This document shows positions 11,964 through 29,316 of a DNA stretch of 57,459 bases, piece by piece (positions within the stretch are counted from its first letter, which is position 1; every line of letters begins with the position of its first letter). The notes under the pieces are model-generated. The model was not told the DNA's origin. It saw only the letters and a list, made by a program, of their open reading frames with translations, and did no database searches. This DNA comes from an uncultured Planctomycetales bacterium (GTDB lineage Bacteria; Omnitrophota; Gorgyraeia; Zapsychrales; Fredricksoniimonadaceae): positions 1 through 57,459 of the forward strand of contig CAZKUL010000001.1 of the NCBI GenBank assembly GCA_964555945.1, read 5' to 3'. A program made the translations under genes and the position numbers.

Positions 11964-11976
11964 AGCAATCCCTTTC

Positions 11977-13011: not shown

Positions 13012-14149
13012 TTAATACCCCCTTCGCATATACAATCTTGTTTTTTGTAACCCTTGGGCGAGAATAGCTCATCGCTGTTCGCCTAAACATCTTATTGATA
13101 TCTAAAAAACGAATTATCGCATCTGCAACCCAAGGAAAATGTGCAACACGACCAAATAAATCAGCCAGACGTCGTTGTTCCCCGAAATGCTTCTGATATT
13201 CATCAGTGTATGCCTTAAGCCTTTCGGCGTCATGGTTATATGTCGTTATTGACTGAGCTAATAATTGACCGCTTTGTAAAGCCACACTGATTCCGACACC
13301 CATCACGGTATCAATAAACGCAGACGAATTACCGACACGCCATATACCATTTTCATAATGAACAATTGAATGTCGTACCTGAATTTGAATAGCCTTCCAA
13401 GGAGATACCCTTGTGGCCCCAATCATTACATTCTGCAAATGTGAGCTCTCCTTGATCCAACCCATCAGCACCTTTTCAGGATCTTGCCCTTTAGCTTTAA
13501 AATATTTAGAGTCTACTACATAACAGACATTGACTTGGTTCTTTTCAAATGGATTGATACCAACATGCCCGCCCTCACAGCAATGAAGCATCACCCGTTT
13601 AAATGATTGAGGAATCCCCTGATAGATGGCGCAAATACCAAATTGAATTTTTGTTAATTTTACCGATGGAGAATGCTGGCCACTAGCATCAATAAGATGG
13701 CGAGTTCGCAAATTAAATTCTTTATTATTTCCATAATGGTCAACCGTTACTTCAAATCCGTTGCCATTGTTGTATATATTCCGAGCCTGAGCCCCCTCAT
13801 ACACCTCAATGCCCATTGCCTTAACACGATCTAACAATAGCGAATCAAATACCTTTCTACTTACCCCTAATGCTTCACCTTCTATCGGTATGACTGTACT
13901 TGCCCCCTTAGAGGATGTAAGTAACGACTCCTCAATAACGCGAGCCCCTTCTTCCAAAAGTTTTGACCAAATCCCTAAATCAAATAACATTGCTTTATTT
14001 TCAGGACCAATAAAACCACCGCATGTCTTGTGCCGAGGGAATGCCGATTTATCAATAATAACAACCTTCCATCCACGCTTCGCTAAACCTAAAGCACAGG
14101 ATGTCCCAGCTGGTCCTGCGCCAATAATTAATGCTTCAACTGTTGTCAT
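13001..14149 (-). CDS. FAD-dependent oxidoreductase/hydroxylase (geranylgeranyl-reductase-like fold)
   Basis: N-terminal dinucleotide fold IIGAGPAGTSCA...VVIIDK. 382 aa. First gene after motif copy 2. Confidence 0.8.
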   Translation of the reverse strand: MTTVEALIIGAGPAGTSCALGLAKRGWKVVIIDKSAFPRHKTCGGFIGPENKAMLFDLGIWSKLLEEGARVIEESLLTSSKGASTVIPIEGEALGVSRKVFDSLLLDRVKAMGIEVYEGAQARNIYNNGNGFEVTVDHYGNNKEFNLRTRHLIDASGQHSPSVKLTKIQFGICAIYQGIPQSFKRVMLHCCEGGHVGINPFEKNQVNVCYVVDSKYFKAKGQDPEKVLMGWIKESSHLQNVMIGATRVSPWKAIQIQVRHSIVHYENGIWRVGNSSAFIDTVMGVGISVALQSGQLLAQSITTYNHDAERLKAYTDEYQKHFGEQRRLADLFGRVAHFPWVADAIIRFLDINKMFRRTAMSYSRPRVTKNKIVYAKGVLSEV

Positions 14150-14219
14150 GAAAACAGTTTATCAAGAGGCCAAGCACTTCAGATAGATGAAAATCATGAT
14201 AAAGACAAAAATTAGGGAA

Positions 14220-14263
14220 GAAAATTGCAGATTCAAACAAAAACTATGCAAAATCTTGCAGGG
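14220..14263 (-). promoter_or_regulatory. triple-TGCA promoter/operator module, copy 2 (upstream of the T3PKS operon)
   Basis: Minus strand reads CCCTGCAAGATTTTGCATAG-N13-CTGCAATTTTC, with TGCA cores starting 10 and 21 bp apart. Lies 70 nt upstream of ATG 14149. Confidence 0.6.
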
Positions 14264-14303
14264 TGTAATTAAACCATATTTTTTCAGCTTATACGAAAGA
14301 AAA

Positions 14304-16244
14304 TTAAAAGCCAAACATATGATCTAGACTGAAAGATTTATCACCTTTGATTAGTCCATGATAGCCGAACAATCGGCAAGTTGTGTCACGTATAATAATA
14401 TACGAGTCTCGACCGGCACGGATGCGCTCTTCTTGGGAAAACATTTCGTTGTAACGCCAAAGCAAGGAACCGCTGCAGGCAATATTCACCGTCTTTTTAA
14501 TAATTTCATTTCCCTTTGCATCTGACAAGATCAAATCAGTTTCAGACTGGGTATGCCATGTGGTTGAGGCTGGATAAATCAAATGACATAACGTGTCTAT
14601 GCCTTCATCACGGCCCAGACGCAAGAAAAGACGCGTACTTAAACCTGGCGGACGACCCGCATAAGACTGTGGTTCATTTTTGTAGACCAATACTGTATTA
14701 AAAATATGCGAGCCGAAGCTGGTTTCGGAATTATGCCCGCTTTTAGTATCTTCGTAACGCATCAAAGCATGCAACCAACCATCGCCCTCACCACCTTGAG
14801 AAAAATCATAAACCAACTCCAAATGACCAAAACCTCCGGGGAATTCTTTTTCAGAACGCTTTCCCAATAAGTTATTGATATTAAAATCTTTGATATTACT
14901 GCGGTTTAATATGCCAAGAGAGTATTTCCCTGCTTGCTGTCCTTTACTGTTATAAACGATTAGAGTCAACGGAAAATTCTCCTGGCAGGTTGACATTGGT
15001 GTGGGCAGCATGATGTTTTTAAATCGGCCAATGGGTAGGATGGGAGCCGGTAATATATAACCCTTACCCATTACTTTAACTAAGTCGGGAATGCCAGGAT
15101 CAGACTTCAAATCAGTACGTTCGACATTGGTGTGCGCAATCAGGCGTTTGCCTTTAGCATCGATAACTTCATAACGTGGCCGCACAAAATGCCGCCCAGC
15201 ATGGACTTCAAACTGCTGCGGCCACCTGGCCTTTGGAAATAAAATAGCCACATCTATCGCACAAGTCGCAAAAGCAGCAATTGGTTTATCGAAAGCAACA
15301 ACATCGTCAGAACCTATTAAGTTCAAACCAATACCAGATGCAGGGATCAGACAGGGATGGCTATTTTGGACCCAAAGTAAAACCTGCTCCCCCTCACGAG
15401 GAGCAGGAAGGCCTGCGTAAAGATCAGCGGGCCAGGAATTGGCATCATGAGTGCAGGAAAGGACAGAGTCATCGTTGCCATAGGTATCTAACGCATATTT
15501 GACGATATCATGACCGGCGATTCCCGTAAAATGTACAAATAAATTTCCAGTAAAACTTTTCAATTTAAAGCGTTGGCTTATCTCAATACTATCCAGGATG
15601 ATAGTATGAACGCATTTTTCAAGCTTTTCATTCCATTGTGCCAATACGCGGCCATCTTTGTCAAACAAACTGCACCATAGCCCAACATTTTTAGGACTGT
15701 ATCCTGCCCAATAATTGGCAGTGACTAAGCGTGTATGATGCCCCAATTCTTCCCGAAAAAAAACAAAATTGGTAGCGAAATTCAAACTGTCAAGATAGTT
15801 TCGGGAATTTGTAAGAAATTCATCCGGCAAACGCGCATCGTCAAAAGAAAAAACCTTTATCCCTTTTGGCAATAGATGCTGAATTTGAGCAATCAAACGC
15901 GTGGAATCAAAAGCTGTAATAAAAATAACATCCGCATCCATATTTTTAAAATCAGTAATAGGCTCTGTATTTCGACCTAGGAGCTGTTTGCCGATATCAG
16001 TGACGTTCTGGACAAAAACACTCATAATTTTTAACTGTGAAATATCATAAAGAGCTTCAAATTCCGCAGCCTGCCCCATCGGGTCATAGACAGCAACTCT
16101 GCCAAAAGACGACAAGAAATTGATCAGATTGAGCATTTTGAAGGAAGTTAAAGGATGTCCCAGCGCCTTAAAAAGGACTGAACCTCCTGCGGCATTGCTG
16201 AATGTTTTGACCTTAAGAAGTTTTTCTTGAGATAATGTCTGCAT
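14304..16244 (-). CDS. conserved-looking 647-aa soluble protein of unknown function
   Basis: Long uninterrupted ORF. True start is taken as MQTLSQEKLL (ATG 16244, AAGG 8 nt upstream, 7 nt after the ELM1-frame stop). The first 41 codons in the ORF track overlap the ELM1 reading frame. Confidence 0.7.
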   Translation of the reverse strand: MQTLSQEKLLKVKTFSNAAGGSVLFKALGHPLTSFKMLNLINFLSSFGRVAVYDPMGQAAEFEALYDISQLKIMSVFVQNVTDIGKQLLGRNTEPITDFKNMDADVIFITAFDSTRLIAQIQHLLPKGIKVFSFDDARLPDEFLTNSRNYLDSLNFATNFVFFREELGHHTRLVTANYWAGYSPKNVGLWCSLFDKDGRVLAQWNEKLEKCVHTIILDSIEISQRFKLKSFTGNLFVHFTGIAGHDIVKYALDTYGNDDSVLSCTHDANSWPADLYAGLPAPREGEQVLLWVQNSHPCLIPASGIGLNLIGSDDVVAFDKPIAAFATCAIDVAILFPKARWPQQFEVHAGRHFVRPRYEVIDAKGKRLIAHTNVERTDLKSDPGIPDLVKVMGKGYILPAPILPIGRFKNIMLPTPMSTCQENFPLTLIVYNSKGQQAGKYSLGILNRSNIKDFNINNLLGKRSEKEFPGGFGHLELVYDFSQGGEGDGWLHALMRYEDTKSGHNSETSFGSHIFNTVLVYKNEPQSYAGRPPGLSTRLFLRLGRDEGIDTLCHLIYPASTTWHTQSETDLILSDAKGNEIIKKTVNIACSGSLLWRYNEMFSQEERIRAGRDSYIIIRDTTCRLFGYHGLIKGDKSFSLDHMFGF

Positions 16245-16251
16245 ATTGATT

Positions 16252-17199
16252 TTACCTTTCTTTCTCTTGAAAGCATTCATAAACAAAATTTGCCGCCTTG
16301 CTTGTCTCATCCAGCGGAATGTTCTTCCAGATTTCAATTTCACCTGAAAAAAAACGCGCTTTACCATTTTGTATTAAACCTTTACAAAATTGTTTATCAC
16401 GATTTCCGCCATTAGGCAGTTCATATATATAAACCGGCTTACCAGTCGATCAAGCTTCCGAAATCATGGAGATGGAATCACTTGTAACAACAATAACATC
16501 CGCAAGGGCCAACAAACCAAAATATGGATTTTCTCCTTTGCCATCCCAAATGTAAGAAGCAATCCCAGCGAGGTCTGGTCTCAATATGGCCTCATTTTCC
16601 TTCCCTGTCCGTCACGAAAATGAAATGGCAAGTCCGCCTCCTGTAATTGCTACTGAAGCCAGAAGTTTTTTTGCAAAATCATGGGCTAATACATCAGAAA
16701 AACCCTGATGCTTGTTTTTACCTCCGACCAACACACAAATCAAAGGACGCGGTAATGACGACAGCAAAGGACGGAAATGCATGGAAGCGCCGTTGAGCCT
16801 TTCAGTGCTGACATGATGAATAGCTCCTTGGGTAACAAAGACATTTTTCCCGCGCATTTTGTCGTGCGTAGGAACAATCACAACGTCAAACTGTTTGGGA
16901 TCTATAAAAAGGTCTTGAATATGGACAGTGAAGGTTTTATTTTTACTTGCACGACGAATAGCCACTGAAACAGGACCGCTTTGACGTCCGCAAGAAATTA
17001 GCATATCCGGCCATGGAGCAATAAGGCCACGCTCAACTGGTGAAAATAAATGCAGGAGACCCTTAGGTCTTTTAATCTCCTTTAAAATATATGGAAGTCT
17101 TAATGCTTGAGCCAGACCAATGGCCTGGTTCTGAAGGCCGACTAAGTCTTCAGTCACGATCCAACATGATGATACCTGCAAATCAGATTTAATGACCAT
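16252..17199 (-). pseudogene. ELM1/GtrOC1-family putative glycosyltransferase interrupted by two in-frame TGA codons
   Basis: A single 315-codon frame runs from 17199 to the TAA at 16252-16254. TGA at 16612-16614 falls at the first R of the family motif SRRT (..AISFS*RTGKE..). TGA at 16450-16452 falls at the conserved C of SEACxTGKPV (..MISEA*STGKPVYIY..). There are no frameshifts. Confidence 0.7.
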
Positions 17200-17211
17200 T
17201 TTTACCGCTTT

Positions 17212-17874
17212 TTAATAGGATGAAAACATTTTGAAAATGGCGGACCATCGGTGCCGATTTTGCTCATGATCGACGAATTTCTGATGAGTCACCCAGTTCA
17301 TCTGAATGACCTTACGTGTGCCTTCAAAAGGCAGATGGCCATGATAAGAATGATCGCTTCGCCTGAAAATAAGCAGGGTACCCACATTAGGAGATAACTC
17401 GGTTTTGATATCCTCAATATTATTACTGTTAAGTAGACGAAGACGGCCTGCGGCCTGATTTTCCCAGGAAGGGTTCATGTAGAGAAGCACAGTAATAATC
17501 TTGCTTTCCGAATCTGTATGTACTTGACCGTCCTTGAGCCTGCATTTGCCGCGGACCGTGAACATTGTCGGTTTACCCTCAAGATCCAGCAAAAATTTTT
17601 TTTCTATGGCGTGCCGGAAAGCATCCGAGTTTAATTCATTAATCAATTGCATAAATTCGCTGCTGCAAGACACAGAGGATAAAGGAAAACTTCCGGCAGC
17701 CTTGACTTTCGGATAAGCGTCTATCAACTTTTCTTTCCAATCCTGTAGGATAAAATCCAAAACGACCACATATTCATAGGGTGATGTTTCCAATTTCGAG
17801 TTATAAATCTTATTAACGTCAATGATAGACAAGTTCGACTTGCTTTCTACTTGTGTTTTGATTGGCTGGTTCAT
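17212..17874 (-). CDS. 2OG-Fe(II) oxygenase superfamily protein
   Basis: HxD...H iron triad context (QVHTDSE ... SYHGH) and RxS-like 2OG site. Start set at MNQPIK after the GAGGAA Shine-Dalgarno; the ORF track start 17922 is also possible. Confidence 0.6.
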   Translation of the reverse strand: MNQPIKTQVESKSNLSIIDVNKIYNSKLETSPYEYVVVLDFILQDWKEKLIDAYPKVKAAGSFPLSSVSCSSEFMQLINELNSDAFRHAIEKKFLLDLEGKPTMFTVRGKCRLKDGQVHTDSESKIITVLLYMNPSWENQAAGRLRLLNSNNIEDIKTELSPNVGTLLIFRRSDHSYHGHLPFEGTRKVIQMNWVTHQKFVDHEQNRHRWSAIFKMFSSY

Positions 17875-17995
17875 ATGTCCATTCCTCATAAAGGTATAGT
17901 CTCGGCTTTTAAAAAATGCCATTAAACTATTTTTTTAATATAACTAATTTTTTTAGATCAATTAATACTAAATTCTAGTTAGAGAGAAAATTAAT

Positions 17996-18041
17996 GAAAA
18001 AAATTGCAGATGTGGTCAAAAAGAGTGCAAATTCTTGCAGG
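17996..18041 (-). promoter_or_regulatory. triple-TGCA promoter/operator module, copy 3 (upstream of the oxygenase/ELM1/647-aa operon)
   Basis: Minus strand reads CCTGCAAGAATTTGCAC-N16-CTGCAATTTTTTTC with 10/21-bp core spacing. Starts 6 nt after the regulator gene stop. Confidence 0.6.
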
Positions 18042-18046
18042 AACAA

Positions 18047-18586
18047 TTAAATGCCATATTTCTTAAGCTTATACCAGAGATTACGTTCGGAAATTCCTAA
18101 TAAACGTGCAGCTTCTGCTTTCACACCATGAGCGGCATTGAGGGCTTTTTGGATAGCTTCTTTTTCTTTTAAACCTACTTGAGATTGTAGATCAAAATCA
18201 TTCGCTGAAGACTCCTTTTTGTTCGACACTTTCTCCATTGCTTTTTTGACAGATTGAACAAGCTCATCGACGCTAAAAGGTTTTCGTATATAATCACAAG
18301 CGCCATGTTTTAAAGTTTTAACAGCGGTATCAACATCCGCATGAGCAGTAGTCACAACAATAGGTAATTTGATTCCCAAACGTTCCATTTCATAAATAAG
18401 CTCTACCCCATCCATGACAGGCATCCGTATATCGGTCACAACAACATCAATCTTTTTATCAAATAAAAATTTCAATGCTTCCTGCCCATTGGATGCCGTC
18501 AAAACATTAAAACCATGCTCAGGCAATCCTAACCTCAAGACGCGCAGCAGGCGAGGTTCATCATCAACTATTAACATTTCAAACAT
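18047..18586 (-). CDS. response regulator, REC + Fis-type HTH (NtrC-like but lacking the AAA+ sigma54-activation domain)
   Basis: REC domain (LIVDDEP..., VVTDIRMP, KPF) joined directly to a C-terminal HTH_8-like segment (EKEAIQKALNAAHGVKAEAARLLGISERNLWYKLKKYGI). Start at MFEMLIVDD, 1 nt after the kinase stop. Confidence 0.85.
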   Translation of the reverse strand: MFEMLIVDDEPRLLRVLRLGLPEHGFNVLTASNGQEALKFLFDKKIDVVVTDIRMPVMDGVELIYEMERLGIKLPIVVTTAHADVDTAVKTLKHGACDYIRKPFSVDELVQSVKKAMEKVSNKKESSANDFDLQSQVGLKEKEAIQKALNAAHGVKAEAARLLGISERNLWYKLKKYGI

Positions 18587-18587
18587 A

Positions 18588-19901
18588 TTATTTTCCCATA
18601 GGTAGATGTATTGTAAAAGCTGTTCCATGAGGAGGAGGATTGCTAACCTCAATTCTTCCTCCGTGATCCTCAATAATGCGTTTGACCACAGTTAATCCTA
18701 TCCCGAAACCATACGGTTTAGTCGTGTACATCAAATCAAAAATCTTTTGCTTTTCTTTGGGATCTAATCCGCTTCCATAATCCCGTACCTGCAACATAAA
18801 CTCTTGTCCTACGACCATCATAGCGATTTCAATGGTATTATTTTTACTAGAGGCTTCAATAGCGTTAAGCAATAAATTCATTAATACCTGTTTGATTGCT
18901 TCAGGATGACAAGGCAAAAGTACTCCAGTCGCTTTATTATAAACGTCTAGCCTTAAATCTGCCGCACGTATTTTTGAAGCAAACAATTCAGTTACCCTTA
19001 AAACCAATGCTGATACATCTGTTGAAACCTTGGGTTTATTATCCCCACGGCGTAGATGCAATAAATCAGTCAGTAATCCATCAACCCGTTCGACTTCTGA
19101 AGATATATCTTCAGCTAAAGTAAGAACCTCTCCTGTCGAGCGTTTGGCAATCACACTGGCAGCACTTTTAACTATCCCCAAAGGATTACGGATTTCATGG
19201 GCAAGCTGCTGAACCAAGGTCACGGAAGCTATTTGTCGTTCTTGCTCCATTAACTGCTTTGTTTGTCTTTGCAATACCTTAATACTATAGGTACTTATTC
19301 CAAGTAAAAGTAAAGTAACTATTGCAATAAAATATACCCCTCCACTCTCCACTTTATATCGAGCTTTTTTAGCTTTGCCTAAAGAAACCTTAATACTATC
19401 AAAATAAAATTGACGTAATGGTTGGCTTGCTTCCTGTAATTGATCTAATGAATAAATTAATGAGGAAGTCGTTTTAGGTGTGGGCTTGGGGTGTAGAGTA
19501 GCAATCGTTTTAGTCAAATCAAGAAAAGCCTGACGTGCGGGGACAAGCAAATGTGCTTCTTGTTGCTCATGGCTGAGTAAATCTACTATTTTCTCTTCTT
19601 CTTGCTCATTTCGGGACCACGATGATAATATGTGGATTAACTCATTAGATTTTAATTTTAATTGGGTGACAGGTAGCATCCCTGCCTGCCAAGCACTGAT
19701 ATCCGTTGATATTTCTTTAAGGACATCCTCGGCAATAACCATGCGTTGGTATTCTTCCCATTCGTCCTCAAATTGAAGTTGATAAAGACGAATTCCATCA
19801 AGATAATGCAGTCCGATTCCGCCTGCAATGGCAATAGCAAGTCCAAGTATCACAAAAGCTGATGTTATTTTATTGGTTAATTTTAGGTAATATGATTTCA
19901 A
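18588..19901 (-). CDS. sensor histidine kinase
   Basis: Two TM segments flank a periplasmic/coiled region. H-box LAHEIRNPL and HATPase N/G boxes (LLLNAIEAS, DYGSGL, GFGIGL). Confidence 0.85.
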   Translation of the reverse strand: MKSYYLKLTNKITSAFVILGLAIAIAGGIGLHYLDGIRLYQLQFEDEWEEYQRMVIAEDVLKEISTDISAWQAGMLPVTQLKLKSNELIHILSSWSRNEQEEEKIVDLLSHEQQEAHLLVPARQAFLDLTKTIATLHPKPTPKTTSSLIYSLDQLQEASQPLRQFYFDSIKVSLGKAKKARYKVESGGVYFIAIVTLLLLGISTYSIKVLQRQTKQLMEQERQIASVTLVQQLAHEIRNPLGIVKSAASVIAKRSTGEVLTLAEDISSEVERVDGLLTDLLHLRRGDNKPKVSTDVSALVLRVTELFASKIRAADLRLDVYNKATGVLLPCHPEAIKQVLMNLLLNAIEASSKNNTIEIAMMVVGQEFMLQVRDYGSGLDPKEKQKIFDLMYTTKPYGFGIGLTVVKRIIEDHGGRIEVSNPPPHGTAFTIHLPMGK

Positions 19902-20266
19902 AATTTATTCACCTGTCTTCTAATAAAAACTACCATAAACAATGACTCTGCAATCATTGCCGCAACGCCAAGTGGTTCGAACCAAGCATCAGGCTCAGCT
20001 GGAATAAAAGGTAATCCTACGGTTCTACTGGCTATATAGCCACCCAATGAACCTACTGCAATCATAAGCCCAAGATTCCATCCCCAAACCTTCTTTTGAT
20101 AAATACCATACGCCGCAATTACAGCGGAAACTCCATTAGCGTAAAAAAGCCAACCTTTATAAACTGCATCACTAAAGCTATCCTTTGCATCAATTACGTG
20201 AATAAGGCCGATAATCAAAATCAATACAATCCCAGACCATAAAAGAAATTTTGATAGTTTAGTCAT
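19898..20266 (-). CDS. small 4-TM membrane protein, unknown function
   Basis: 122 aa with four hydrophobic helices. ATGA overlap with the kinase gene. First gene after motif copy 4. Confidence 0.6.
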   Translation of the reverse strand: MTKLSKFLLWSGIVLILIIGLIHVIDAKDSFSDAVYKGWLFYANGVSAVIAAYGIYQKKVWGWNLGLMIAVGSLGGYIASRTVGLPFIPAEPDAWFEPLGVAAMIAESLFMVVFIRRQVNKF

Positions 20267-20411
20267 GAAACACGCTTTCTTATGAATAAAATACTTTGGT
20301 TTATACCCTAACTAAAGAGATTAAAACACTTCATAGATTGAATAATGTACTATTATTTTACCATAAATAAAAAAGACTACGATAAAACCAATATATCTGA
20401 TAACAAACAAA

Positions 20412-20459
20412 GAAAAAAATTGCAGAAATTAATGATACACCATGCAATTTTATGCAGGG
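20412..20459 (-). promoter_or_regulatory. triple-TGCA promoter/operator module, copy 4 (upstream of the membrane protein-HK-RR operon)
   Basis: Minus strand reads CCCTGCATAAAATTGCATGG-N14-CTGCAATTTTTTTC with core spacing 10/22 bp. Confidence 0.55.
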
Positions 20460-20504
20460 TAAGGAATTAGTGGACACAGAAAATAATATTAATCAAAAGA
20501 TTAA

Positions 20505-20663
20505 TTAAATTTCAATCAAGTTGATTACAGGTATTTCAATCATGAACACTAACCATGAATGGCATACCAAACCAGATAAAACCGAAAATAGTGCTATTTC
20601 GGACCAAAGCAACGAACGATTTTCTTCGCTTAACTTTGCACCTTTTTTAATGAGTTGAATCAT
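20505..20663 (-). CDS. 52-aa small ORF with strong Shine-Dalgarno (hypothetical membrane peptide)
   Basis: AAATGGAGGTGAGGT-ATG. Product MIQLIKKGAKLSEENRSLLWSEIALFSVLSGLVCHSWLVFMIEIPVINLIEI. Below the ORF-track size cutoff. Confidence 0.4.
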   Translation of the reverse strand: MIQLIKKGAKLSEENRSLLWSEIALFSVLSGLVCHSWLVFMIEIPVINLIEI

Positions 20664-20780
20664 ACCTCACCTCCATTTATGTATGCCCTCTTTCGGAATA
20701 ATGACGCGGTCTTAAAATTTTTGGTGTCCAAATTCGATCTACATTAGGTTACTGGTAGTTAAAAAATCTTAAAAGATGTT

Positions 20781-20813
20781 AAAACAAAAAAGCTCCGTTT
20801 ATCGACGGAGTTT
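20781..20813 (-). terminator. intrinsic terminator following tRNA-like half A
   Basis: Minus strand reads CTCCGT-CGATAA-ACGGAG followed by CTTTTTTGTTTT. Confidence 0.7.
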
Positions 20814-20858
20814 CTTGATTTCTTTAAAAATAAAGGAAATAGGAAATTGGCCGGATTG

Positions 20859-20899
20859 CATTGCGAACGACGCGCTCTCCCAAACCAAGCTACCGACCC
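20859..20899 (-). repeat. tRNA-like 5' half, copy A (acceptor 5' strand, D arm, anticodon stem-loop only)
   Basis: Minus strand reads GGGTCGGTAGCTTGGTTTGGGAGAGCGCGTCGTTCGCAATG, identical at 38 of 41 positions to 34263..34223. There is no T arm or 3' acceptor strand downstream. Confidence 0.7.
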
Positions 20900-21018
20900 T
20901 TTATAACTCTTTTATTATTAATTACTTGCGACAATAAAAATTTTTTCTATTTTCTAATTTAGAGTTGGTGTCCAAATTGTGTCCGTTACGCCCTACAAAA
21001 TTAAAAGGTTCTTTAAAA

Positions 21019-21056
21019 CGTTATTAACGATGCGCTCTCCACTAAGTTAAACACAC
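21019..21056 (-). repeat. degenerate third tRNA-like 5' half
   Basis: Minus strand reads GTGTGTTTAACTTAGTGGAGAGCGCATCGTTAATAACG and aligns with the D-arm/anticodon-arm part of copies A and B. It is followed by an AATTTGGACACCAA box at 20965-20978. Confidence 0.45.
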
Positions 21057-21182
21057 TATAAATCGATTTATTGATTAGAAATTATACAACAAATCACCCT
21101 ATTGTGTATTAATTTCTCATTCGCTATTAACTAGCAAGGGATAGAACGAGTAATCATTATCTACCTATCTCATTCTTGGAAT

Positions 21183-22538
21183 TTACGCAGGAATATTGCC
21201 TACTTTGTAATCTAAAACCGCACGCTGGATCAAGTATTCATAATCAGCGTTAGCTTCGGTGATCGCAGCCTGAGTATCAGCAAGCTGGGCTTCGTTTAAA
21301 TCAACGATGGAACTTCTTCCGAGTTGGTAGCGTGTTTGTGTTAATTGTAATGATTCGTGGGTACTTTTAAGCAGCTGCCTTGTGACTTCAATATTCTTAT
21401 AAGCTGTCTGCACATTATCAAAAGCAATGCGAACGTCTCTCTGCAATTCGTTCATCTTTGCTATCAAATCTTGTTTTGCTGCCAAGGCTTTGTACTCTGC
21501 CTCTTTTTCTTCTGCCGTAATTTTACCTCCCGTAAAAAAAGGTATGCTGACAAGAATACCTGCTGCCTCGTAATGGTGAGCGATAGATTGATTATCCACG
21601 CGGTAAGGAGAAGCACCCGCATAACCAACGACGCTAATTGTCGGATATTTTGCATCACGCGCCGCTGCCTCATTTTTTAACTGAACGTTACTTTCTGCCT
21701 TCAATTCGGAAATTTCTGGATTCTGCTCAAGCGCCGTACTTATCAAAGGGCCTATGGAACCTGATGGCGGTACAATACTAACCTTATCTACCTGTTCAAA
21801 ATTTCTTGGCTCACTTAATCCAAGGGCCTCGGACAATGTCGCTTGTGCGTCATCCACCGAACTTCTAGCCTTCAATAGCAGAAGATTAGCATCAGCTACA
21901 GCTGATTCCCCTATACTTACATCTAGATCCGATTTCATCTTTGCCTTGCGCAATTCTGAAACTTGCTTAAACAATGTGCTTCGTGTTTTCAGAGCATCCT
22001 CTGACACCCGTAGTAGTGATTGCGAACGCAAAAGATCGTAATAAGCAGATATCACATTAAGTAATACTGTATCGCGTATAAAATTAGTACGATCCTTATG
22101 GGATTCTAATTCTAGTCTAGAGGAAGCAACTAAATTGCTCGTTCTGCCAAAGTCCGTAATAAGCTGGCTTAAACCTAAACCAACCGAACCACGTTCAATG
22201 ACTGAGGAACTGGTCAACCCACCGGATGCAGCTATTACGGTACCGCGATCATCAAAAGTACGCACTGCATCTCCAGTAATTTGTGGAAGGTACGCTGAAC
22301 GCGCATCATCCACATTTTCTGCTGCCGCTTTCGTAGTATATTCTGCTGAAAGTACCTGAGGATGATACTCCAAAGCGATCTTACAAGCTTCTTTCAAGGT
22401 TAATTTTTGTGGAATGCTGTCAGCATTATCAGCGAGAGCGATTCTGCTGTAAAATATGGCGAAAACCACTGTAATAAGAATGTAACGTCTCAAAAGGCCC
22501 AACACCCTAGTCATCGTATCTTTATATTTTTTTATCAT
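21183..22538 (-). CDS. TolC-family outer-membrane efflux protein
   Basis: 451 aa with a signal peptide and two internally repeated coiled-coil/beta-barrel halves typical of OMFs. The start shares 1 nt with the RND gene stop. Confidence 0.85.
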   Translation of the reverse strand: MIKKYKDTMTRVLGLLRRYILITVVFAIFYSRIALADNADSIPQKLTLKEACKIALEYHPQVLSAEYTTKAAAENVDDARSAYLPQITGDAVRTFDDRGTVIAASGGLTSSSVIERGSVGLGLSQLITDFGRTSNLVASSRLELESHKDRTNFIRDTVLLNVISAYYDLLRSQSLLRVSEDALKTRSTLFKQVSELRKAKMKSDLDVSIGESAVADANLLLLKARSSVDDAQATLSEALGLSEPRNFEQVDKVSIVPPSGSIGPLISTALEQNPEISELKAESNVQLKNEAAARDAKYPTISVVGYAGASPYRVDNQSIAHHYEAAGILVSIPFFTGGKITAEEKEAEYKALAAKQDLIAKMNELQRDVRIAFDNVQTAYKNIEVTRQLLKSTHESLQLTQTRYQLGRSSIVDLNEAQLADTQAAITEANADYEYLIQRAVLDYKVGNIPA

Positions 22539-25500
22539 TACACCTCTCCCATATTGGGTAGGATTTTATGATTATTTGAACCTTCCTTACCATAAATCAA
22601 TAGATAGGCCATCGGTACGATAAATATAGTGAGCAAAACAGAAAGAGTAAGACCCCCAATAATTACACGGGCAAGAGACGCATAAGCTTCGCTGCCAGCA
22701 CCAAGCGCTAATGACATTGGTATTAAACCAATGATGGTTGCCAATGACGTCATCAAGACTGGACGCAACCGAACGCGGCATGCAACAGAAACGGCTTTTT
22801 TAATATCAGGTTCTCTTTCTCTTAAGCGATGAGTAAACTCTACGATCAGAATGCTGTTAGATGAGGCAATTCCCATTAACATGACTATTCCCATTAGCGA
22901 CATAACATTAAGGGTTGTATTGGTGAGAAGTAGGGTAATCGGCACACCTGCCAAACCAGGTAATATGGCCAATAATATAATAAAAGGATCAATGAAAGAT
23001 TGAAACTGCGCAACCAGCACAAGATAAACTAACAGTATTGACAACAATAGCCCAAGGCCAAAAACCTTGAGCGATGTCTGCATGGCCAAAACTGACCCGT
23101 GAAGATGAATGCGCACATCCGGGGGTAATTTTTCGTCGTGTATGATATTTTCTACTTTCGAGGCTACCCTGCTCAAATCTTCACTCTTAGGTGCCACATA
23201 GATATCAATAACCCGACGCAGTTGATAATGATCCACAACTTTCGGGGCCTCCATGTGTGTTATCTTGGCCACCATACCAAGCCTTGTCGGGTTTTTTATA
23301 TTTGTACCGCGAATAGGGATAGACGCAAGGTCATCAATGGACTTTATATTATTTTCCGGGTACTGTACGGTCAGCATATAATCAAATCCAGTTTTAGGGT
23401 CCACCCAATAACTTGGTGCGATCATTTCATTGGAAGCAAGTGCCGTAATGACATTGTCCATAACTTCCTTTTGAGTGATTCCCATCTCGTTGGCATGAAT
23501 ACGGTCAATGTCAAGTTTAAGTGAAGGGGTATTGATGTCCTGAGGGATGTAGACGTCACTGACTTCTTTAAGTCCGCGGATTTTAATGGCCAGATCTTTT
23601 GCAATATTATGGTCTTTCTCTAAATCTGTCCCTTCAATCTGCACATCTATCGGTGCTGGCAAGCCAAGATTCAATACGGCATCGACCAATCCCCCTGTTT
23701 GGAAATATGTCACAAGCTCAGGCAATTCTGTCTGAACGGCCCTGCGGACCCGCGTCATATATTCATAACTTCCAATTTTATGACCTTCTTTTAAACTCAC
23801 CTGAACATAAGCGCTGTGACTTCCAGTATTAGTGGTATAAATAGCAGACAAACCTGAAACATTACCGATGTTGGAAATAATCTGGTCAAGATCACCTTTA
23901 GAAATAATACGGCGGATAATGCCTTCGACTTCTGCCACTTCTTGAGTGGTTATCTCAACACGTGTGCCTGTCGGGGCCTTAATCATAATGACAAACTGTC
24001 CCGGGTCGGTTCGTGGAAAATAGGAAAACCCTATGAAAGAAAATAGAAAAGGACTCAAGAGAAAGGCAACAAGAAATGCCGCCAGGTTAAAACGCGGACG
24101 TGCAATGGCAACGGCTACCCAATGGTCATAAGTAAGAAGCATTCTTTCAAACTTATGATTGAACCAATGGTTGAAACGGGTGCCCCAGTTTTCCTTTGCT
24201 GGATGATATTCATGCTTGTGTAAAAACTTGGCGCAAAATAAAGGCACGACAGTCATGGCAATGACATATGAAGCAAAAAGTGAAATGACCACCGAAAGCG
24301 CCAATGCTGAAAATAAAAACTTACTGACACCGTAAAGAAAGGTAACGGGAATAAATACGATAGCCGTTGTAATGGTTGATGCCAAAACCGGCAATTCAAC
24401 CTCCTGCCCTCCTTTTTCGGCAGCCTCCTGAGGCGATTCTCCTCTCTCTAAATGGCGATAAATGTTCTCCAGAACAACCACTGAATTATCAATGACTCTT
24501 GAAAATGCGAGGGCCAGCCCTCCTAAGATCATGGCGTTGACCGAATTTCCCATCCAGGACAAAATTAAAAAGACAGCACATATAGAAAGAGGTATGGAGA
24601 AAAAAACCGCCGCTGTTGCACGTAAGTTACCCAAAAACACCAAAATCATTATTCCTGTCAGAAGAAGCCCAATGATCCCTTCATGGATCAGGTTTTCGAT
24701 AGCGTTCTTCACAAAAACAGACTGATCAAAAACTACCTTGGCAACGAGGTTTTTCGGTACATCAACCAAATTGGCAATCGCTTTTTTAACACCATCAACA
24801 ATGGCTATGGTATTGGAATCACCTCCCTGCCTTAAGACTGGCAGATAGACTGAGGGTTGGCCGTCAATACGCACCACGTTGGTCTGGATGGATGCGGCAT
24901 CCGCAGCATGACCAATATCAGCAATGGTGACCGAGGAATTACCGACCGTCTTAAGCGGAACCTGGTTTAACTCACTCATTGTATCGACTTGGCTGTTGCT
25001 AAAAATGTTGTAATTATACGGCCCGATCTTAACGTCACCTGTGGGTATAATTAAATTGGAATTATTCACTCCCCGCACCACATCCATAACACTTAGTTGG
25101 TGGGCTTCAAGCTTAAGTGGGTCTACATAAACCATGATTTGACGGTATTTTCCGCCAAAGGGCGGTGGTACCGAAGCTCCCGGGACACCCGCCACTTGAT
25201 TGCGAATGTTATATTGACCAAGATCGCGCAGTTGGGCTTCATTGAGCCCATTGGCTTTCAATGTGATAAGACAAACAGGGAGGCTGGATGCATCAAATTT
25301 TAATACGACAGGAGGCAGGGTGCCCTGGGGCAAATGACGAAGGTTGGCCATGGCCAAATTGGAGATCATGCTCACATCTGTATCAGGATCACTGCCTGGT
25401 TGGAAAAAAATTTTAATCAGACTGACACTCGGCAAGGATCGCGATTCGATATGGTCAATACCACTGGCGAGCGTAAAAAAACGCTCAAAACGACTGGTAA

Positions 25501-25681
25501 TAGACGTTTCAATATCTTGGGCTGGCATGCCGGAATAAAAGGTCGCGACCACAACCACCGGGATACGAATGGACGGGAACAAATCAACCGGCATACGCAC
25601 AAGACTCGTTATACCGAGTACGCAAGTAATCAGACAACATACAATGATGAAATAGGGATATAAAATAGAAAAACGCGGCAT
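22538..25681 (-). CDS. RND efflux permease (AcrB/CzcA superfamily)
   Basis: 1047 aa with 12-TM topology and two large periplasmic loops. N-terminus MPRFSILYPYFIIV..DLFPSI and TM4 motif VIDNSVVVLEN. Confidence 0.9.
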   Translation of the reverse strand: MPRFSILYPYFIIVCCLITCVLGITSLVRMPVDLFPSIRIPVVVVATFYSGMPAQDIETSITSRFERFFTLASGIDHIESRSLPSVSLIKIFFQPGSDPDTDVSMISNLAMANLRHLPQGTLPPVVLKFDASSLPVCLITLKANGLNEAQLRDLGQYNIRNQVAGVPGASVPPPFGGKYRQIMVYVDPLKLEAHQLSVMDVVRGVNNSNLIIPTGDVKIGPYNYNIFSNSQVDTMSELNQVPLKTVGNSSVTIADIGHAADAASIQTNVVRIDGQPSVYLPVLRQGGDSNTIAIVDGVKKAIANLVDVPKNLVAKVVFDQSVFVKNAIENLIHEGIIGLLLTGIMILVFLGNLRATAAVFFSIPLSICAVFLILSWMGNSVNAMILGGLALAFSRVIDNSVVVLENIYRHLERGESPQEAAEKGGQEVELPVLASTITTAIVFIPVTFLYGVSKFLFSALALSVVISLFASYVIAMTVVPLFCAKFLHKHEYHPAKENWGTRFNHWFNHKFERMLLTYDHWVAVAIARPRFNLAAFLVAFLLSPFLFSFIGFSYFPRTDPGQFVIMIKAPTGTRVEITTQEVAEVEGIIRRIISKGDLDQIISNIGNVSGLSAIYTTNTGSHSAYVQVSLKEGHKIGSYEYMTRVRRAVQTELPELVTYFQTGGLVDAVLNLGLPAPIDVQIEGTDLEKDHNIAKDLAIKIRGLKEVSDVYIPQDINTPSLKLDIDRIHANEMGITQKEVMDNVITALASNEMIAPSYWVDPKTGFDYMLTVQYPENNIKSIDDLASIPIRGTNIKNPTRLGMVAKITHMEAPKVVDHYQLRRVIDIYVAPKSEDLSRVASKVENIIHDEKLPPDVRIHLHGSVLAMQTSLKVFGLGLLLSILLVYLVLVAQFQSFIDPFIILLAILPGLAGVPITLLLTNTTLNVMSLMGIVMLMGIASSNSILIVEFTHRLREREPDIKKAVSVACRVRLRPVLMTSLATIIGLIPMSLALGAGSEAYASLARVIIGGLTLSVLLTIFIVPMAYLLIYGKEGSNNHKILPNMGEV

Positions 25682-25694
25682 ATGGGAAAAGATC

Positions 25695-26858
25695 CTATTC
25701 TTTCAATGTCGTAATGAGTTTAGGCATGACCTTCATCCCTATATTGACCATTTCTCGACTACCATAGACTACCTGGTCTCCTTCTTTTAAACCGCTCAGA
25801 ATTTCAATTTTATCAGCAGTTTGTAACCCGACTGTAACCGGTTGTTCTTCAATTTCATTCTTATCATTGATCTTCCAAACATTGGGATTTCCGTTTAAAG
25901 AAACCGCCTGGATCGGAAGAGTCGTCACATTCTTTTTATTTTCAAGACCCAAATTCACATAAGCATACATGCCGGGTGTAAGACGTAAATCATGATTATC
26001 AACATCCACTTCCGTTTCCATGGTGCGGGTATCAGGATCGACCATGTCTGTGGTACGTGCCACCTTACCCACAATTTTCTGCCCTGTAGCACTAATCGTT
26101 ACTTCCATTGGCATACCCACTTTAATAAAAGGGACATCAGGTTCAGGTACTGGGAAGTCAAGACGCAACTTATCATTCTCGGCAATATGTACGACAGGCA
26201 TTGTTTGCCTGTCATTACTGCCGCTTGCCTGGATCATTGCGCCTGGATCGGCATAACGCTTAGTAACAACTCCATCAAATGGCACCGTGATAGTCGAATA
26301 ATCCATAAAAGTTTTTGCCCGCTCCATGTTAGCTTTAGCTATGGCGTAAGCGGCCTGTGCATTGTCTACATCCTGCTGGGCCAATAGTCCGGGTTGTTTT
26401 TCTATGACTTGATTAAGACGGTCATAATTAAGTTTGGCATCGTTATATGCGGCAGTGGCATTATCAAAATCAGCTTTCAGTTCCTCCGTATCTATTTTGG
26501 CGATGACCTCTCCGGCCTTGACTTGGTCGCCAATATCAACAGTGAGATACTTAAGATAACCCGCCACCTTAGCATGGAGATCAATTTCTTGGTATGGTTT
26601 CAACTCACCGCTGATTGTGACAAACCGCGCTAAATCTCCGCGCGTGACTTTTGCGGTGGCAACGAATTTAGCATTATCATTTGGTCTTGCAGTGTGCAGA
26701 CCTGAGAACCACAACACCACACCAACAACAATTAATAATGAAAACAGGCCCAAAACAATCTTGGTACGTCTATCCATACCTTTCGATTCTTTCTTAATCC
26801 CTATCGGTCGTTCGTTATCCAACTCTGAATCTTTTAATAAATTATTAATGTCCCTCAT
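25695..26858 (-). CDS. RND periplasmic adaptor (membrane fusion protein, HlyD_D23-type)
   Basis: 387 aa with an N-terminal TM anchor, lipoyl/coiled-coil/beta-barrel order, and the motif ..GDQVKAGEVIAKID... An internal start at MDRRTK is possible. Confidence 0.85.
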   Translation of the reverse strand: MRDINNLLKDSELDNERPIGIKKESKGMDRRTKIVLGLFSLLIVVGVVLWFSGLHTARPNDNAKFVATAKVTRGDLARFVTISGELKPYQEIDLHAKVAGYLKYLTVDIGDQVKAGEVIAKIDTEELKADFDNATAAYNDAKLNYDRLNQVIEKQPGLLAQQDVDNAQAAYAIAKANMERAKTFMDYSTITVPFDGVVTKRYADPGAMIQASGSNDRQTMPVVHIAENDKLRLDFPVPEPDVPFIKVGMPMEVTISATGQKIVGKVARTTDMVDPDTRTMETEVDVDNHDLRLTPGMYAYVNLGLENKKNVTTLPIQAVSLNGNPNVWKINDKNEIEEQPVTVGLQTADKIEILSGLKEGDQVVYGSREMVNIGMKVMPKLITTLKE

Positions 26859-26872
26859 TTAATCTGCACCTT

Positions 26873-27262
26873 TTATCCTCCCATCATATGAACTTCTGTC
26901 ATTTTGCCTGGCTCTAAAATGGCACCAATGATTTCATTCTTATACTGACGACTCCCAAGTGGAACAATCACATATTTTCCAGGTGATAAAGTAAACGTAT
27001 TGGGAGTATTATCATTCCTAACCGATTCTATTAACTTTCCATTATCTGAAAAAATATTGTAGCGTAGGCCTCTAACCCACAAATAACCTCCATCATTAAC
27101 CTCTTCTTCTTTTGTGTAGACCTTTAAATACGCTTCTTTGGCTGGTTTTGGCACCGTCGGCCCCACTTCCTGCTTAATATCCTGCCAAGTATACCGTTGA
27201 CCAGCGCTGGCACAACTTGCCATAAGCACCCCAAGAATTAAGACTAATACTATGCGCACCAT
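26873..27262 (-). CDS. small secreted lipoprotein, paralog 1 (unknown family, beta-sandwich-like)
   Basis: 129 aa with lipobox-like LMASC. The mature part begins YTWQDIKQEVGPTVPKP and ends ..GAILEPGKMTEVHMMGG. GGGGGGA Shine-Dalgarno upstream. Confidence 0.65.
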   Translation of the reverse strand: MVRIVLVLILGVLMASCASAGQRYTWQDIKQEVGPTVPKPAKEAYLKVYTKEEEVNDGGYLWVRGLRYNIFSDNGKLIESVRNDNTPNTFTLSPGKYVIVPLGSRQYKNEIIGAILEPGKMTEVHMMGG

Positions 27263-27271
27263 GCATCCCCC

Positions 27272-27412
27272 CTAATTATGTGCCGTTGGTCCTACTACTT
27301 CGTTAACATCATTCCATGTATACGTCCGGCCACCACTTGCACAACTTGTCAAACTCATCAAACAAGCAATAACGATAAATTTTCCAAAAGTCTTAAAAAT
27401 CAAGCGGAGCAT
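27272..27412 (-). pseudogene. truncated third paralog of the small lipoprotein (46 codons)
   Basis: MLRLIFKTFGKFIVIACLMSLTSCASGGRTYTWNDVNEVVGPTAHN*. It keeps the signal peptide, the LTSC lipobox and the first ~20 mature residues of the family, then stops just before the next gene's RBS. Confidence 0.5.
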
Positions 27413-27803
27413 ACTTAGGATCTTCTCCCTTCATATGGACCTCGGTAAGTTGACCTGGTTCTAAAATTGCACCAAAGATTTCAGTCTTAGTAATATTTGT
27501 TTCTGGGACAATTACATATTTACCAGGTGGCAACGTTATTAACTTTGGATCTTCATCATTAAAAGCGATCCATCTTAATTTCTTTCCATCTGATGAATAA
27601 ATAGTGTACGGTACACGAGACACCTTTGGTATATCCCCATCGCTATAAACACGGGCTTCTGAATAGACCTTTAAATATGCTTCCGGTTTGGGCACTTTAG
27701 GCCCTACCTCTTGCTTAGTATCATGCCAGGTATAAGCATTGGCATAGCTTGCCATGCTCACCAAACAAACAATCGTGATCACTTTTCCGATGATGTAGCG
27801 CAT
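27393..27803 (-). CDS. small secreted protein, paralog 2 of 26873..27262
   Basis: Start set at MRYIIGKV (AAGGAGA Shine-Dalgarno 7 nt upstream). The mature part begins YTWHDTKQEVGPKVPKP and ends ..GAILEPGQLTEVHMKGE... The track start at 27860 is a TTG with no support. Confidence 0.65.
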   Translation of the reverse strand: MRYIIGKVITIVCLVSMASYANAYTWHDTKQEVGPKVPKPEAYLKVYSEARVYSDGDIPKVSRVPYTIYSSDGKKLRWIAFNDEDPKLITLPPGKYVIVPETNITKTEIFGAILEPGQLTEVHMKGEDPKYAPLDF

Positions 27804-27948
27804 AATATTTCTCCTTTTCATAGATGTTATCCCGTTAATAATTTCTAAATCTTCCAGCAATTAATGTGCCCACCACAATAAAAATACCCAAAATAAAAGA
27901 GAATACCTTTTCATCCATAATTTGATATCCTCTTACAAAAGGGATCTA

Positions 27949-28401
27949 TCAAACTACCGCAGGCCCACCTGAAAGGGAGCCAATTATCCCTAAAAGTACG
28001 TTTTTACCATCAGATTTATCAAAATAAGCATCCGCACCTTCAATTCTTTCTTTTTGCTCATCAATGGAAAAAACACTAGAAATAACAACTTTGACATTCT
28101 TATGAAAGGTACGTATTAATCCATAAAGCACTGATCCATCTACTTCAGCCATCTTAATATCTAGAAGGACAATATCAAATCTACTCTGTACCAATAGTTC
28201 CTTGGCTTGTGTGGCATTCGATGCTGTAAGCACTTCAAAACCATAATGCCAAAATAAACGACGATATGCGTCTCTAATATGCGCCTCATCATCAATTACT
28301 AATATCCGTTGGGCAGATATTTGATTTATCTCATCCCATAGCAAATCTTTATTTTTCTGTTGATAATATTCCGGTAATCTGCCCACATGTGTTTGATTCA
28401 T
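27949..28401 (-). CDS. stand-alone receiver (CheY-like) response regulator
   Basis: REC motifs ILVIDDE, VLLDIKMAEVDG, and a K in ..DKSDG. Start set at MNQTHVG after the AAGGGGGTGAAA Shine-Dalgarno. Confidence 0.75.
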   Translation of the reverse strand: MNQTHVGRLPEYYQQKNKDLLWDEINQISAQRILVIDDEAHIRDAYRRLFWHYGFEVLTASNATQAKELLVQSRFDIVLLDIKMAEVDGSVLYGLIRTFHKNVKVVISSVFSIDEQKERIEGADAYFDKSDGKNVLLGIIGSLSGGPAVV

Positions 28402-28433
28402 TTTCACCCCCTTGGCTCGATCCATCTGAACAA

Positions 28434-28490
28434 AGTATACCCAGTGACGTATTAAAGGGACGTTAGAATAGAATAAGAATTTTATTATTA
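28434..28490 (-). promoter_or_regulatory. activator-type promoter cassette, copy R1
   Basis: Minus strand reads AATAATAAAATTCTTATTCTATTCTAACGTCCC-N17-TGGG-TATACT, homologous to the two cassettes at 31614-31742. The -10-like TATACT is at 28434-28439. Confidence 0.5.
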
Positions 28491-28551
28491 TTTATTTTTA
28501 AGACAAGCTTTTGATGGGAGCTTCAATGCGGAATGGTAATGGGAATAAAAT

Positions 28552-29298
28552 TTATCCACCCATACCAAGAGACTCCATTAAACGTTGAACGAACCTTGGA
28601 TTTACATCTACTCCTAGTTCATCCGCTTTGTGTACATCTGCCCAAGCTTTGTTGTAATGACTTAAATGATAATAAACAACTGCTCGGTTACTGTAGGCGT
28701 TGCCATATTTAGGGTCTATTGCAATGGCCCTGTCTAAATCAGCCATAGCTTGTGTGAAATCGTTTTGCTTAGCATACGCAATACCACGGTTAACATAGGC
28801 TGTTACATGATTAGGGTCTAATTCAATGGCTTTGTTTAAATCGGCAAGAGCTTGAGTAAAATTATGTTCTTTAGAGTAATCAAAACCACGATTGTTATAT
28901 GCATCCGGATCGTTAGGACTTAATTGAATGGCTTTATTATAATCAAGAATGGCTTTGTCCAACATCTCCTGCGCGTCGAAAGCATTACCACGGTTGTTAT
29001 AGGTAAGCGCATCGTTAGGTTTTATTTCAATAGCCTTTGTGTAGTCAGAAATGGCTTGATCATAATTCCCTTGGGCGTAGTAGGCCAAGCCGCGATTATA
29101 ATAAACATTGGGAAAGTCAGGATCTATTTCAATAGCTTTAGTAAAATCAGTTATAGCTTGAGTAATATTTCCTTGTTTTGCATCGGTCAGACCTTGATTA
29201 AAATACTCTTCTGTCGTTAACGCATAACAATTTAAAGTAAGTATCCAATTTCCGATTAAAATCAAAAATGCTATTGAAATAATTTTAATTTTTCTCAT
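28552..29298 (-). CDS. secreted tetratricopeptide-repeat protein
   Basis: Signal peptide followed by about six consecutive 34-aa TPR units (..A..Y.KAIE.DP....AY.NRG...). Confidence 0.85.
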   Translation of the reverse strand: MRKIKIISIAFLILIGNWILTLNCYALTTEEYFNQGLTDAKQGNITQAITDFTKAIEIDPDFPNVYYNRGLAYYAQGNYDQAISDYTKAIEIKPNDALTYNNRGNAFDAQEMLDKAILDYNKAIQLSPNDPDAYNNRGFDYSKEHNFTQALADLNKAIELDPNHVTAYVNRGIAYAKQNDFTQAMADLDRAIAIDPKYGNAYSNRAVVYYHLSHYNKAWADVHKADELGVDVNPRFVQRLMESLGMGG

Positions 29299-29316
29299 AA
29301 ATTTTTCTCCGATTCT

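Follow-up and report, generated by a model that had tools for sequence, protein, structure and literature searches.

A stretch of 57,459 nt (the window) carries on its minus strand repeated segments that begin like a tRNA gene and then run into a poorly conserved stretch, a terminator hairpin and a short box. ARAGORN predicted 0 tRNA genes in the 57-kb window. What, then, are these segments, and how did they come to stand in tandem? A preliminary description of this DNA leaned towards paralogous small-RNA genes. Here, we compare the segments with tRNA genes, with metagenome loci and with a family of integrases, and weigh that reading against others.

Tandem tRNA-half modules and their relatives

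The window holds two modules, A and B, and a degenerate third copy, C, with the following parts:

34405..34448, minus strand: promoter-like motif AAATCGATATACAAC..ATTTATTGTATAA, upstream of half B
34221..34263, minus strand: half B, tRNA-Ala(CGC) nt 1-43 with G35A (anticodon); a displaced 5' fragment, putatively the core side of an attL
34143..34220, minus strand: putative element-derived arm B, a variable stretch with hairpin 34177..34155 and T-run 34155..34143
34084..34099, minus strand: box B, ACAATTTAGACACCAA, a candidate arm-type integrase site, in the same position in L019-L021
21081..21108, minus strand: sigma-70-like promoter TACACA-16-TATAAT, heading an element-type leader and conserved before the intact tRNA of L013
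21019..21056, minus strand: degenerate half C, in which 21049..21019 corresponds to tRNA nt 8-44; conserved in L013 and L018
20965..20984, minus strand: box C, a tandem GGACACAATTT-GGACACCAA, homologous to the last codons of the integrase gene (..MDTIWTPS..) in L006 and L025
20859..20899, minus strand: half A, tRNA-Ala(CGC) nt 1-41 with C13T and A14G; a displaced 5' fragment
20780..20858, minus strand: putative element-derived arm A, a hypervariable stretch with hairpin 20810..20793 and T-run 20792..20780
20721..20734, minus strand: box A, AATTTGGACACCAA, on the far arm; a candidate arm-type integrase site
20505..20663, minus strand: truncated left-end gene of 52 aa; in relatives a 130-140-aa membrane protein, M[LI]xLIKK...

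Half A is identical to the tRNA-Ala(CGC) genes of Omnitrophota and 'Planctomycetales' MAGs at 39 of 41 nt, and half B to seven intact tRNA-Ala(CGC) genes at 42 of 43 nt (97.7%). Their 35-nt core, GGGTCGGTAGCTYRGTTTGGGAGAGCGCGTCGTTC, has two copies in the window (20899.. and 34263.., with 0 expected) and is absent elsewhere in it. Half C aligns locally to the tRNA with a score of 34, against a mean of 12.4 and a maximum of 20 for shuffles, and appears to be an older, decayed junction. In a search of one genome per species, 21 nt of the core matched nine contigs only, all from Omnitrophota or 'Planctomycetales' MAGs, and the match was tRNA-Ala(CGC) wherever the gene was complete on the contig. 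The parental tRNA, for which the preliminary description had offered the 41-nt core as a probe, is a tRNA-Ala(CGC) of the kind seen in these MAGs.

All of the pieces listed in that description (box, halves, terminator and degenerate copy) were recovered, and its statement that they are not tRNA genes agrees with our results: no T arm or 3' tRNA end was found anywhere in the window with up to three mismatches allowed. The tRNA homology ends at nt 41 in half A and at nt 43 in half B, within the 3' strand of the anticodon stem, so neither half has a complete anticodon stem-loop. Of the stem-loop described earlier, the 5' strand and the loop are tRNA-derived, and the stem is incomplete. Additionally, modules A and B align without gaps over ~185 nt, which bears out the recurring order of their parts. 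In both, the half is followed by the poorly conserved stretch, the terminator hairpin with its T-run TTTTTTGTTTTA, ~60 nt of further sequence and the box AATTTRGACACCAA, which lies 124/125 nt past CAATG, and so past the half, in both modules.

A pattern for the half that leaves out true tRNAs was run over metagenome contigs and found the same module at 10 loci, which have mosaic arm types, share the left-end gene and differ in cargo. The arms fall into two types, recombined into mosaics among the modules. Nine of the nine loci with a complete half are identical to the tRNA at all 18 nt that the pattern leaves unconstrained, and in an 11-way alignment the sequence conservation runs 60 nt beyond the terminator, up to the box. 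The segments were rightly judged not to be random debris: they form a conserved homologous module, and its ten additional copies exclude the earlier proviso that the copies might be unique to one strain. The left-end protein, encoded by the first gene past the box, is multi-pass, carries the motif ..GVKVHxxGLKW.. and occurs in L015, L017, L020 and L021; the copy in L013 is cut to 87 aa, and no Pfam family matched this membrane protein. The flank beyond half B gave only paralogue-level, differently oriented matches to L005.

The most informative of these loci is L013, in which a half-module (9758) and an intact tRNA-Ala (1823..1749) lie on the same strand, 7.9 kb apart. The half is preceded by the native tRNA promoter CTTGTCAA..TAGGAT (TAnnAT type), as found before the intact tRNAs of L003, L004 and L009, which are unoccupied sites with the native promoter directly before the gene. 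The native promoter also precedes the displaced half in L014. The leader of the intact tRNA-Ala in L013 is foreign, being homologous to window 21125..20900 with its TACACA-16-TATAAT promoter, half C and box. The intact gene is followed by rsmE, a conserved neighbour that follows the intact tRNA-Ala in L001, L005-L009, L013 and L025, and at all complete loci. This layout indicates that the insert has nt 41 of the tRNA at either border, in the displaced half on one side and in the intact gene on the other, and that it supplied a new 5' half. The cargo of the insert comprises large unknown proteins and a toxin-antitoxin pair.

A dyad-bearing promoter-like motif (ACACAAC..N..TTGTTGTATAAT) is present at window 21081..21125 and 34405..34448 and in L005, L008, L013 and L017. 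It lies upstream of tRNA-Ala genes and of halves, and is unlike the CTTGTCAA-type promoter of L003, L004, L009 and L013. In particular, window 34405-34448 matches L008 556-599, upstream of an intact tRNA-Ala, at 84% by blastn, and the motif upstream of half B also precedes the half in L017.

Some shorter similarities were also seen. The tRNA start has a further short copy (GGGTCGGG) ~45-55 nt upstream of the half in L019 and L020, and half B of the window has a similar one, GCAGGTCGAGTC. The sequence 'AGACCGCGTCATT' downstream of box A recurs in L017, L019 and L021; it was considered as a further tRNA remnant and rejected, its score being inside the shuffle range.

The integrase family and its candidate binding sites

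The minus strand of the window ends in the remnant of an integrase gene, and relatives of this integrase adjoin several tRNA genes:

Window 2..281, minus strand: pseudogene of a tyrosine integrase that spans residues 214-306 alone, has one frameshift and is truncated by the window end
L022-L024: an ICE with type IV secretion genes, SSB, an HTH_17 excisionase-like gene and MerR; tRNA-Lys(CTT) 23 nt past the integrase stop
L026-L028: a Prim-Pol element; tRNA-Ser(TGA) 22 nt past the integrase stop
L030: integrase, then tRNA-Thr(TGT) of a Thr-Tyr-Gly cluster, 25 nt past the stop
L029: a second ICE, with a truncated integrase and no tRNA after it

The called product of the pseudogene matches PF00589 and is 92% identical in amino acids to the L006 integrase; at the nucleotide level the identity to L006 and L025 is 87-88%. 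In L006, the integrase stop codon lies 17 nt before tRNA-Ala, which is followed by rsmE. L025 is arranged likewise, with an intact 388-aa integrase followed by tRNA-Ala, rsmE and recA. Homologues of the integrase number in the thousands (more than 6,500), and the named ones are mostly from Omnitrophota. Five family members were looked up besides those at tRNA-Ala; the related integrases are 61-73% identical and end before tRNA-Lys, -Ser and -Thr. Stop codons of the family lie 17-25 nt upstream of tRNA-Ala, -Lys, -Ser or -Thr genes, and the integrases of L025, L022, L026 and L030 are intact. Viral contigs yielded no match to the tRNA core or the integrase, and hence no sign of a phage.

In L026, a copy of nt 1-42 of the tRNA-Ser (1881-1922), 100% identical, stands 9.3 kb before the intact gene (11190), and an HTH_17 (excisionase-like) gene, MerR and the intact integrase lie at the tRNA-proximal end. 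Judged by its sequence, L026 is a complete, repeat-bounded element of the same integrase family. Two side observations concern these tRNA-Ser and tRNA-Thr sites. A second mobile element (DnaG-like zinc ribbon, AAA_25, large terminase and DNA methylase) occupies L026 11505..21167, immediately downstream of the tRNA-Ser at which the Prim-Pol element ends, and this tRNA appears to be used from both sides by two elements. Downstream of the L030 tRNA-Thr(TGT) gene, its last 18 nt are repeated at a distance of 129 nt (8662..8679), which looks like a small 3'-type att scar beside a 5'-type integrase site.

The box is shared between the modules and these elements. AATTTGGACACCAA occurs exactly at 20734..20721 and 20978..20965 and with one mismatch at 34097..34084; with up to two mismatches, the window contains four matches to the box against 0.9 expected. 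The shorter RGACACCAA has only three sites in the window, which are the three boxes. L026 (21 kb) also has only three, two of them in tandem ~115-135 nt past the displaced half and one in the 3' end of the integrase gene. In L006, the box lies 72 nt upstream of the intact tRNA-Ala, inside the last codons of the integrase gene (..RMDTIWTPSSKF..). RGACACCAA is therefore found on both element arms, and its tandem pairs have a period of 11-12 nt, one helical turn. The arrangement is common to the tRNA-Ala modules and the complete tRNA-Ser element, which have different tRNA targets. Box C is homologous to the integrase tail and is thus the remnant of the integrase-side arm. Collectively, the boxes have the arrangement of arm-type integrase-binding sites and are probably such sites.

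Other origins of the box were considered and rejected. An integrase-coding origin accounts for the integrase-side copy, but the far-arm copies are not in frame or, in the B type, include a stop, and such copies are found in the intact element L026 as well. A leftover tRNA 3' end (..CACCA) is not supported, as the box has no match to the acceptor strand CCGATCC. A sigma-54 element or a sigma-70 -35 element had no consistent, well-spaced partner by inspection, and the scan gave one weak match. Furthermore, GTCCAAATT, which corresponds to the first 9 nt of the box in reverse complement, was seen at 34343..34351 (minus strand), ~85 nt upstream of half B, and an inverted GGACACCAA ~250 nt past the half of L013; these may be chance occurrences or extra integrase sites.

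Islands and their proposed order of insertion

Two islands are delimited by the halves and the left end of the window:

20900..34220, minus strand: island 1, ~13.3 kb, between half B and half A, with no integrase left
1..20858, minus strand: island 2, at least 20.9 kb, which runs off the window and ends in the integrase pseudogene

Read on the minus strand, the array consists of the promoter motif, half B, its far arm, island 1, the element-type leader with half C and its box, half A, its far arm, the left-end gene, island 2 and the integrase pseudogene. By Pfam, island 1 encodes an OmpR-type regulator and a histidine kinase, a porin, further response regulators, a TPR protein and an RND efflux triad, and it is 89% identical to L018 over 8.6 kb. 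At 8575..11022, L018 has an extra 2.4 kb between the efflux outer-membrane gene and the C region, where the window has 42 nt (21181/21139); this extra cargo encodes a regulator-like protein, a small ORF, an outer-membrane-like protein and a small membrane protein. Island 2 carries a two-component system, a 2OG oxygenase, a type III PKS cluster, an ABC transporter and other genes (Pfam). At 11211..14149 (minus strand), the type III polyketide synthase lies beside a UbiE-type methyltransferase and an FAD monooxygenase, with an SDR, a phosphatase and another methyltransferase nearby, and the cluster resembles those of the alkylresorcinol/alkylpyrone type. The G+C content is 0.32-0.34 at 6000..11000 against 0.36-0.46 elsewhere in the window, which suggests a mosaic origin within island 2; an 818-aa ORF in this low-G+C part (7180..9636) had no Pfam match.

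Since the halves match the tRNA, L013 holds a bracketed insert, L026 is repeat-bounded and the window retains an integrase pseudogene, the modules are very likely attL junctions of islands integrated in the tRNA-Ala(CGC) of an Omnitrophota-like bacterium. Small-RNA genes are then not needed to account for them. The preliminary description had itself named simple leftovers of a rearranged tRNA gene as the outcome contrary to its proposal, and this is essentially what we found, because the pieces would be leftovers of a tRNA gene that is intact elsewhere. Both islands now seem to be immobilised, since island 2 has only a pseudogene of the integrase and island 1 has none.

The proposed mechanism is as follows. 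The tyrosine integrases of this family would recombine in the anticodon-loop region of the tRNA gene, and the element would carry, directly after its integrase gene, a replacement tRNA 5' half with its own leader and promoter. Because the element brings a 5' half, integration would fuse this half to the native 3' half, and the regenerated intact gene would remain beside rsmE. The native promoter with nt 1-41 or 1-43 would be displaced to the far end of the island and joined to the other arm of the element, made up of the intrinsic terminator, the tandem RGACACCAA boxes and the conserved membrane-protein gene. The terminator of this arm might block transcription from the orphaned tRNA promoter into the island. 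Repeated integration in the regenerated tRNA would give the tandem array of the window. C and A lie close together, with 40 nt between half C and its box and 65 nt between this box and half A; an intermediate element might have stood here and been almost wholly deleted.

The window itself contains no intact integrase, and the intact tRNA-Ala is outside the sequence. From the synteny of L006 and L025, an intact tRNA-Ala with rsmE is predicted just left of window position 1. Over ~400 nt on the minus strand, the predicted order is the rest of the pseudogene, a GGACACAATTTGGACACCAA box, tRNA-Ala(CGC) and rsmE.

Differences between near-identical sequences are concentrated in one patch. L012, a metagenome contig 99.3% identical to the window, differs from it at 20 positions over 2.75 kb, and 18 of these differences lie within 20792..20887, the ~100 nt that separate tRNA nt 13 and the terminator. 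Substitutions in this patch are not adenine-specific, and a diversity-generating retroelement was therefore rejected as the cause of the hypervariability. Gene conversion among modules appears to be the likeliest cause, and is favoured because the module arms are mosaics.

The order of decay also departs from a simple history. Half C, the nearest to the predicted tRNA side of island 1, is the most decayed, and the outermost halves are near-perfect, which is unlike simple accretion with neutral decay and suggests gene conversion, recent trans-mobilisation or selection. We consider it unlikely, though it has some chance, that something less ordinary is involved: that the module has been co-opted as an abundant tRNA-half sRNA with its middle under diversifying selection, that the well-kept att arms allow integrases of other elements to move integrase-less islands in trans, or that the Omnitrophota clade always takes the promoter-proximal half of the tRNA. 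If the last were true, the element would control the expression of the occupied tRNA.

With the modules read as attL junctions, odd tRNA-like fragments would be explained as ordinary mobile-element scars, and two fossil islands would be delimited, one of ~13 kb with efflux and signalling genes and one of at least 21 kb with a type III polyketide cluster. Moreover, a poorly studied phylum would have an integrase clade in which the rarer polarity, with replacement of the tRNA 5' half and its promoter, is the rule. The signature of tRNA nt 1-42 followed by RGACACCAA repeats, present on both arms, could be used to map islands in metagenome-assembled genomes.

Other readings and comparison with known systems

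The hairpin 20810..20793 with the T-run to 20780 was detected by the terminator scan, and the predicted hairpin and T-run fold in 11 of the 11 aligned modules. The stem variants include a compensatory G:C to A:U change in window module B and L019, and a U:A to U:G change in L018. With the hairpin, T-run and compensatory change all present, the structure is best taken as a predicted intrinsic terminator, and a terminated RNA of ~110-120 nt is probably made from each module.

Such an RNA would be the product if the modules were, or had become, sRNA genes, transcribed from the tRNA promoter and acting in trans or as a T-armless tRNA mimic. Each module is indeed flanked by a promoter-like site and the conserved terminator, the unconstrained positions of the half match the tRNA at nine loci even where the integrase is lost, and the middle is hypervariable between near-identical strains. 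Moreover, the stretch after the half pairs over 6-7 bp with the acceptor 5' strand in seven of the 11 modules, and the variants keep this pairing. However, att-site function explains every conserved part of the module. Conservation also runs through the 60 nt between the terminator and the box, for which an sRNA has no need. Against shuffles, the acceptor-like pairing does not reach significance (p 0.05-0.13), and it fails in the three B-type modules and L017; nor do the modules as a whole fold better than shuffles (z -1.5 and +0.8). A T-armless mini-tRNA was rejected on these grounds, although the pairing is present in both MFE folds. In Rfam 15, nothing in the window reached the gathering score, and the sub-threshold matches were driven by the terminator hairpin; the weak matches to BSnc120 and RsaE were dropped for this reason. 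Finally, the tRNA-Ser element of the same family in L026 has no terminator after its half. We therefore regard this reading as improbable. A function of its own for the module RNA is conceivable and gained no specific support from these results.

It is less probable still, and rather remote, that the modules are cis-regulatory leaders (attenuators) of the two-component-system operons downstream. Modules A and B do lie upstream of regulator and kinase genes on the same strand, with the terminator between the promoter and these genes. However, the same module stands ahead of unrelated cargo in relatives (in L013, the large unknown proteins and the toxin-antitoxin pair), a separate promoter-like site lies between B and its regulator gene, and no alternative antiterminator fold was seen.

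Split or trans-spliced tRNA genes of the Nanoarchaeum type, or local tRNA duplication and decay without a mobile element, would fit two to three 5' halves in a window without a tRNA, but can be dismissed almost entirely, given that the window has no 3' half, that relatives have an ordinary intact tRNA-Ala at the insert end, that an integrase is associated and a complete repeat-bounded element is known (L026), and that A14G in half A and the anticodon change G35A in half B are incompatible with tRNA function.

As attL junctions, the modules can be compared with several known systems. That displaced tRNA-gene fragments mark island ends, and that islands form tandem arrays and use anticodon-centred sites, is textbook knowledge. 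In lambda attP, the arm-type Int-binding sites are a repeated motif on both arms, bound by the N-terminal domain of the integrase. The boxes described here are similarly short direct repeats on both arms, ~110-130 bp from the putative crossover and distinct from the core, with tandem copies ~11 bp apart, and they would be bound by the integrase. Unlike in lambda, the sites of one arm lie inside the coding tail of the integrase gene (..MDTIWTPS..), so their conservation there could partly reflect protein coding. CIMEs, known from the ICESt1-type elements of Streptococcus, have att sites on both sides and no integrase, and can be mobilised in trans. Island 1 and L013 resemble them in having kept the att arms and lost the integrase; in contrast to CIMEs, trans-mobilisation is here a possible reason for the well-kept halves and arms. 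To our knowledge, neither Omnitrophota-like hosts nor the present integrase clade have been described for 5' tDNA polarity.

tRNA gene fragments left by mobile-element insertion are a recognised annotation nuisance (PMC9897764). The Islander survey lists 3760 islands with 3' tDNA fragments and 159 with 5' fragments, of 3919, and 2083 islands with anticodon-centred attP sites (Hudson, Lau & Williams 2015, PMC4383910). Its signature is a tDNA fragment that equals the end of an intact tDNA and has the same orientation, a 5' fragment lying upstream of the gene. This signature is seen in the relatives L013 and L026; for the window, the intact gene is the one predicted outside the sequence. In relatives, the target is regenerated with its native flank (rsmE) kept, and empty sites exist in L003, L004 and L009; an integrase within the island is represented by the pseudogene fragment 281..2 in island 2 and is missing from island 1. 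As in Islander islands with 5' fragments, a tyrosine integrase is involved and sequence brought by the element restores the split tRNA gene; the island ends are marked by the fragment and by the intact gene in the same orientation, tandem arrays occur, and the repeat ends in the anticodon arm. The present elements differ from the bulk of these islands in belonging to the minority polarity (159 of 3919), in which an element that supplies the tRNA 5' half must also bring a promoter, and in having an integrase stop codon only 17-25 nt from the tRNA 5' end.

Prochlorococcus tycheposons represent a similar build-up of islands at tRNA genes, with partial tRNAs and broken integrases (bioRxiv 10.1101/2020.12.28.424599). 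In both systems, older elements are displaced outward as new ones integrate at the same tRNA, the islands contain tRNA pieces and integrase fragments, and the integrase clades are split by tRNA target. The present islands differ in their host phylum and in their efflux, signalling and polyketide cargo. Collectively, these comparisons place the modules, read as attL junctions, in the known minority class of insertion scars with 5' fragments, with the host phylum and the apparent use of this polarity by a whole clade as slightly new aspects.
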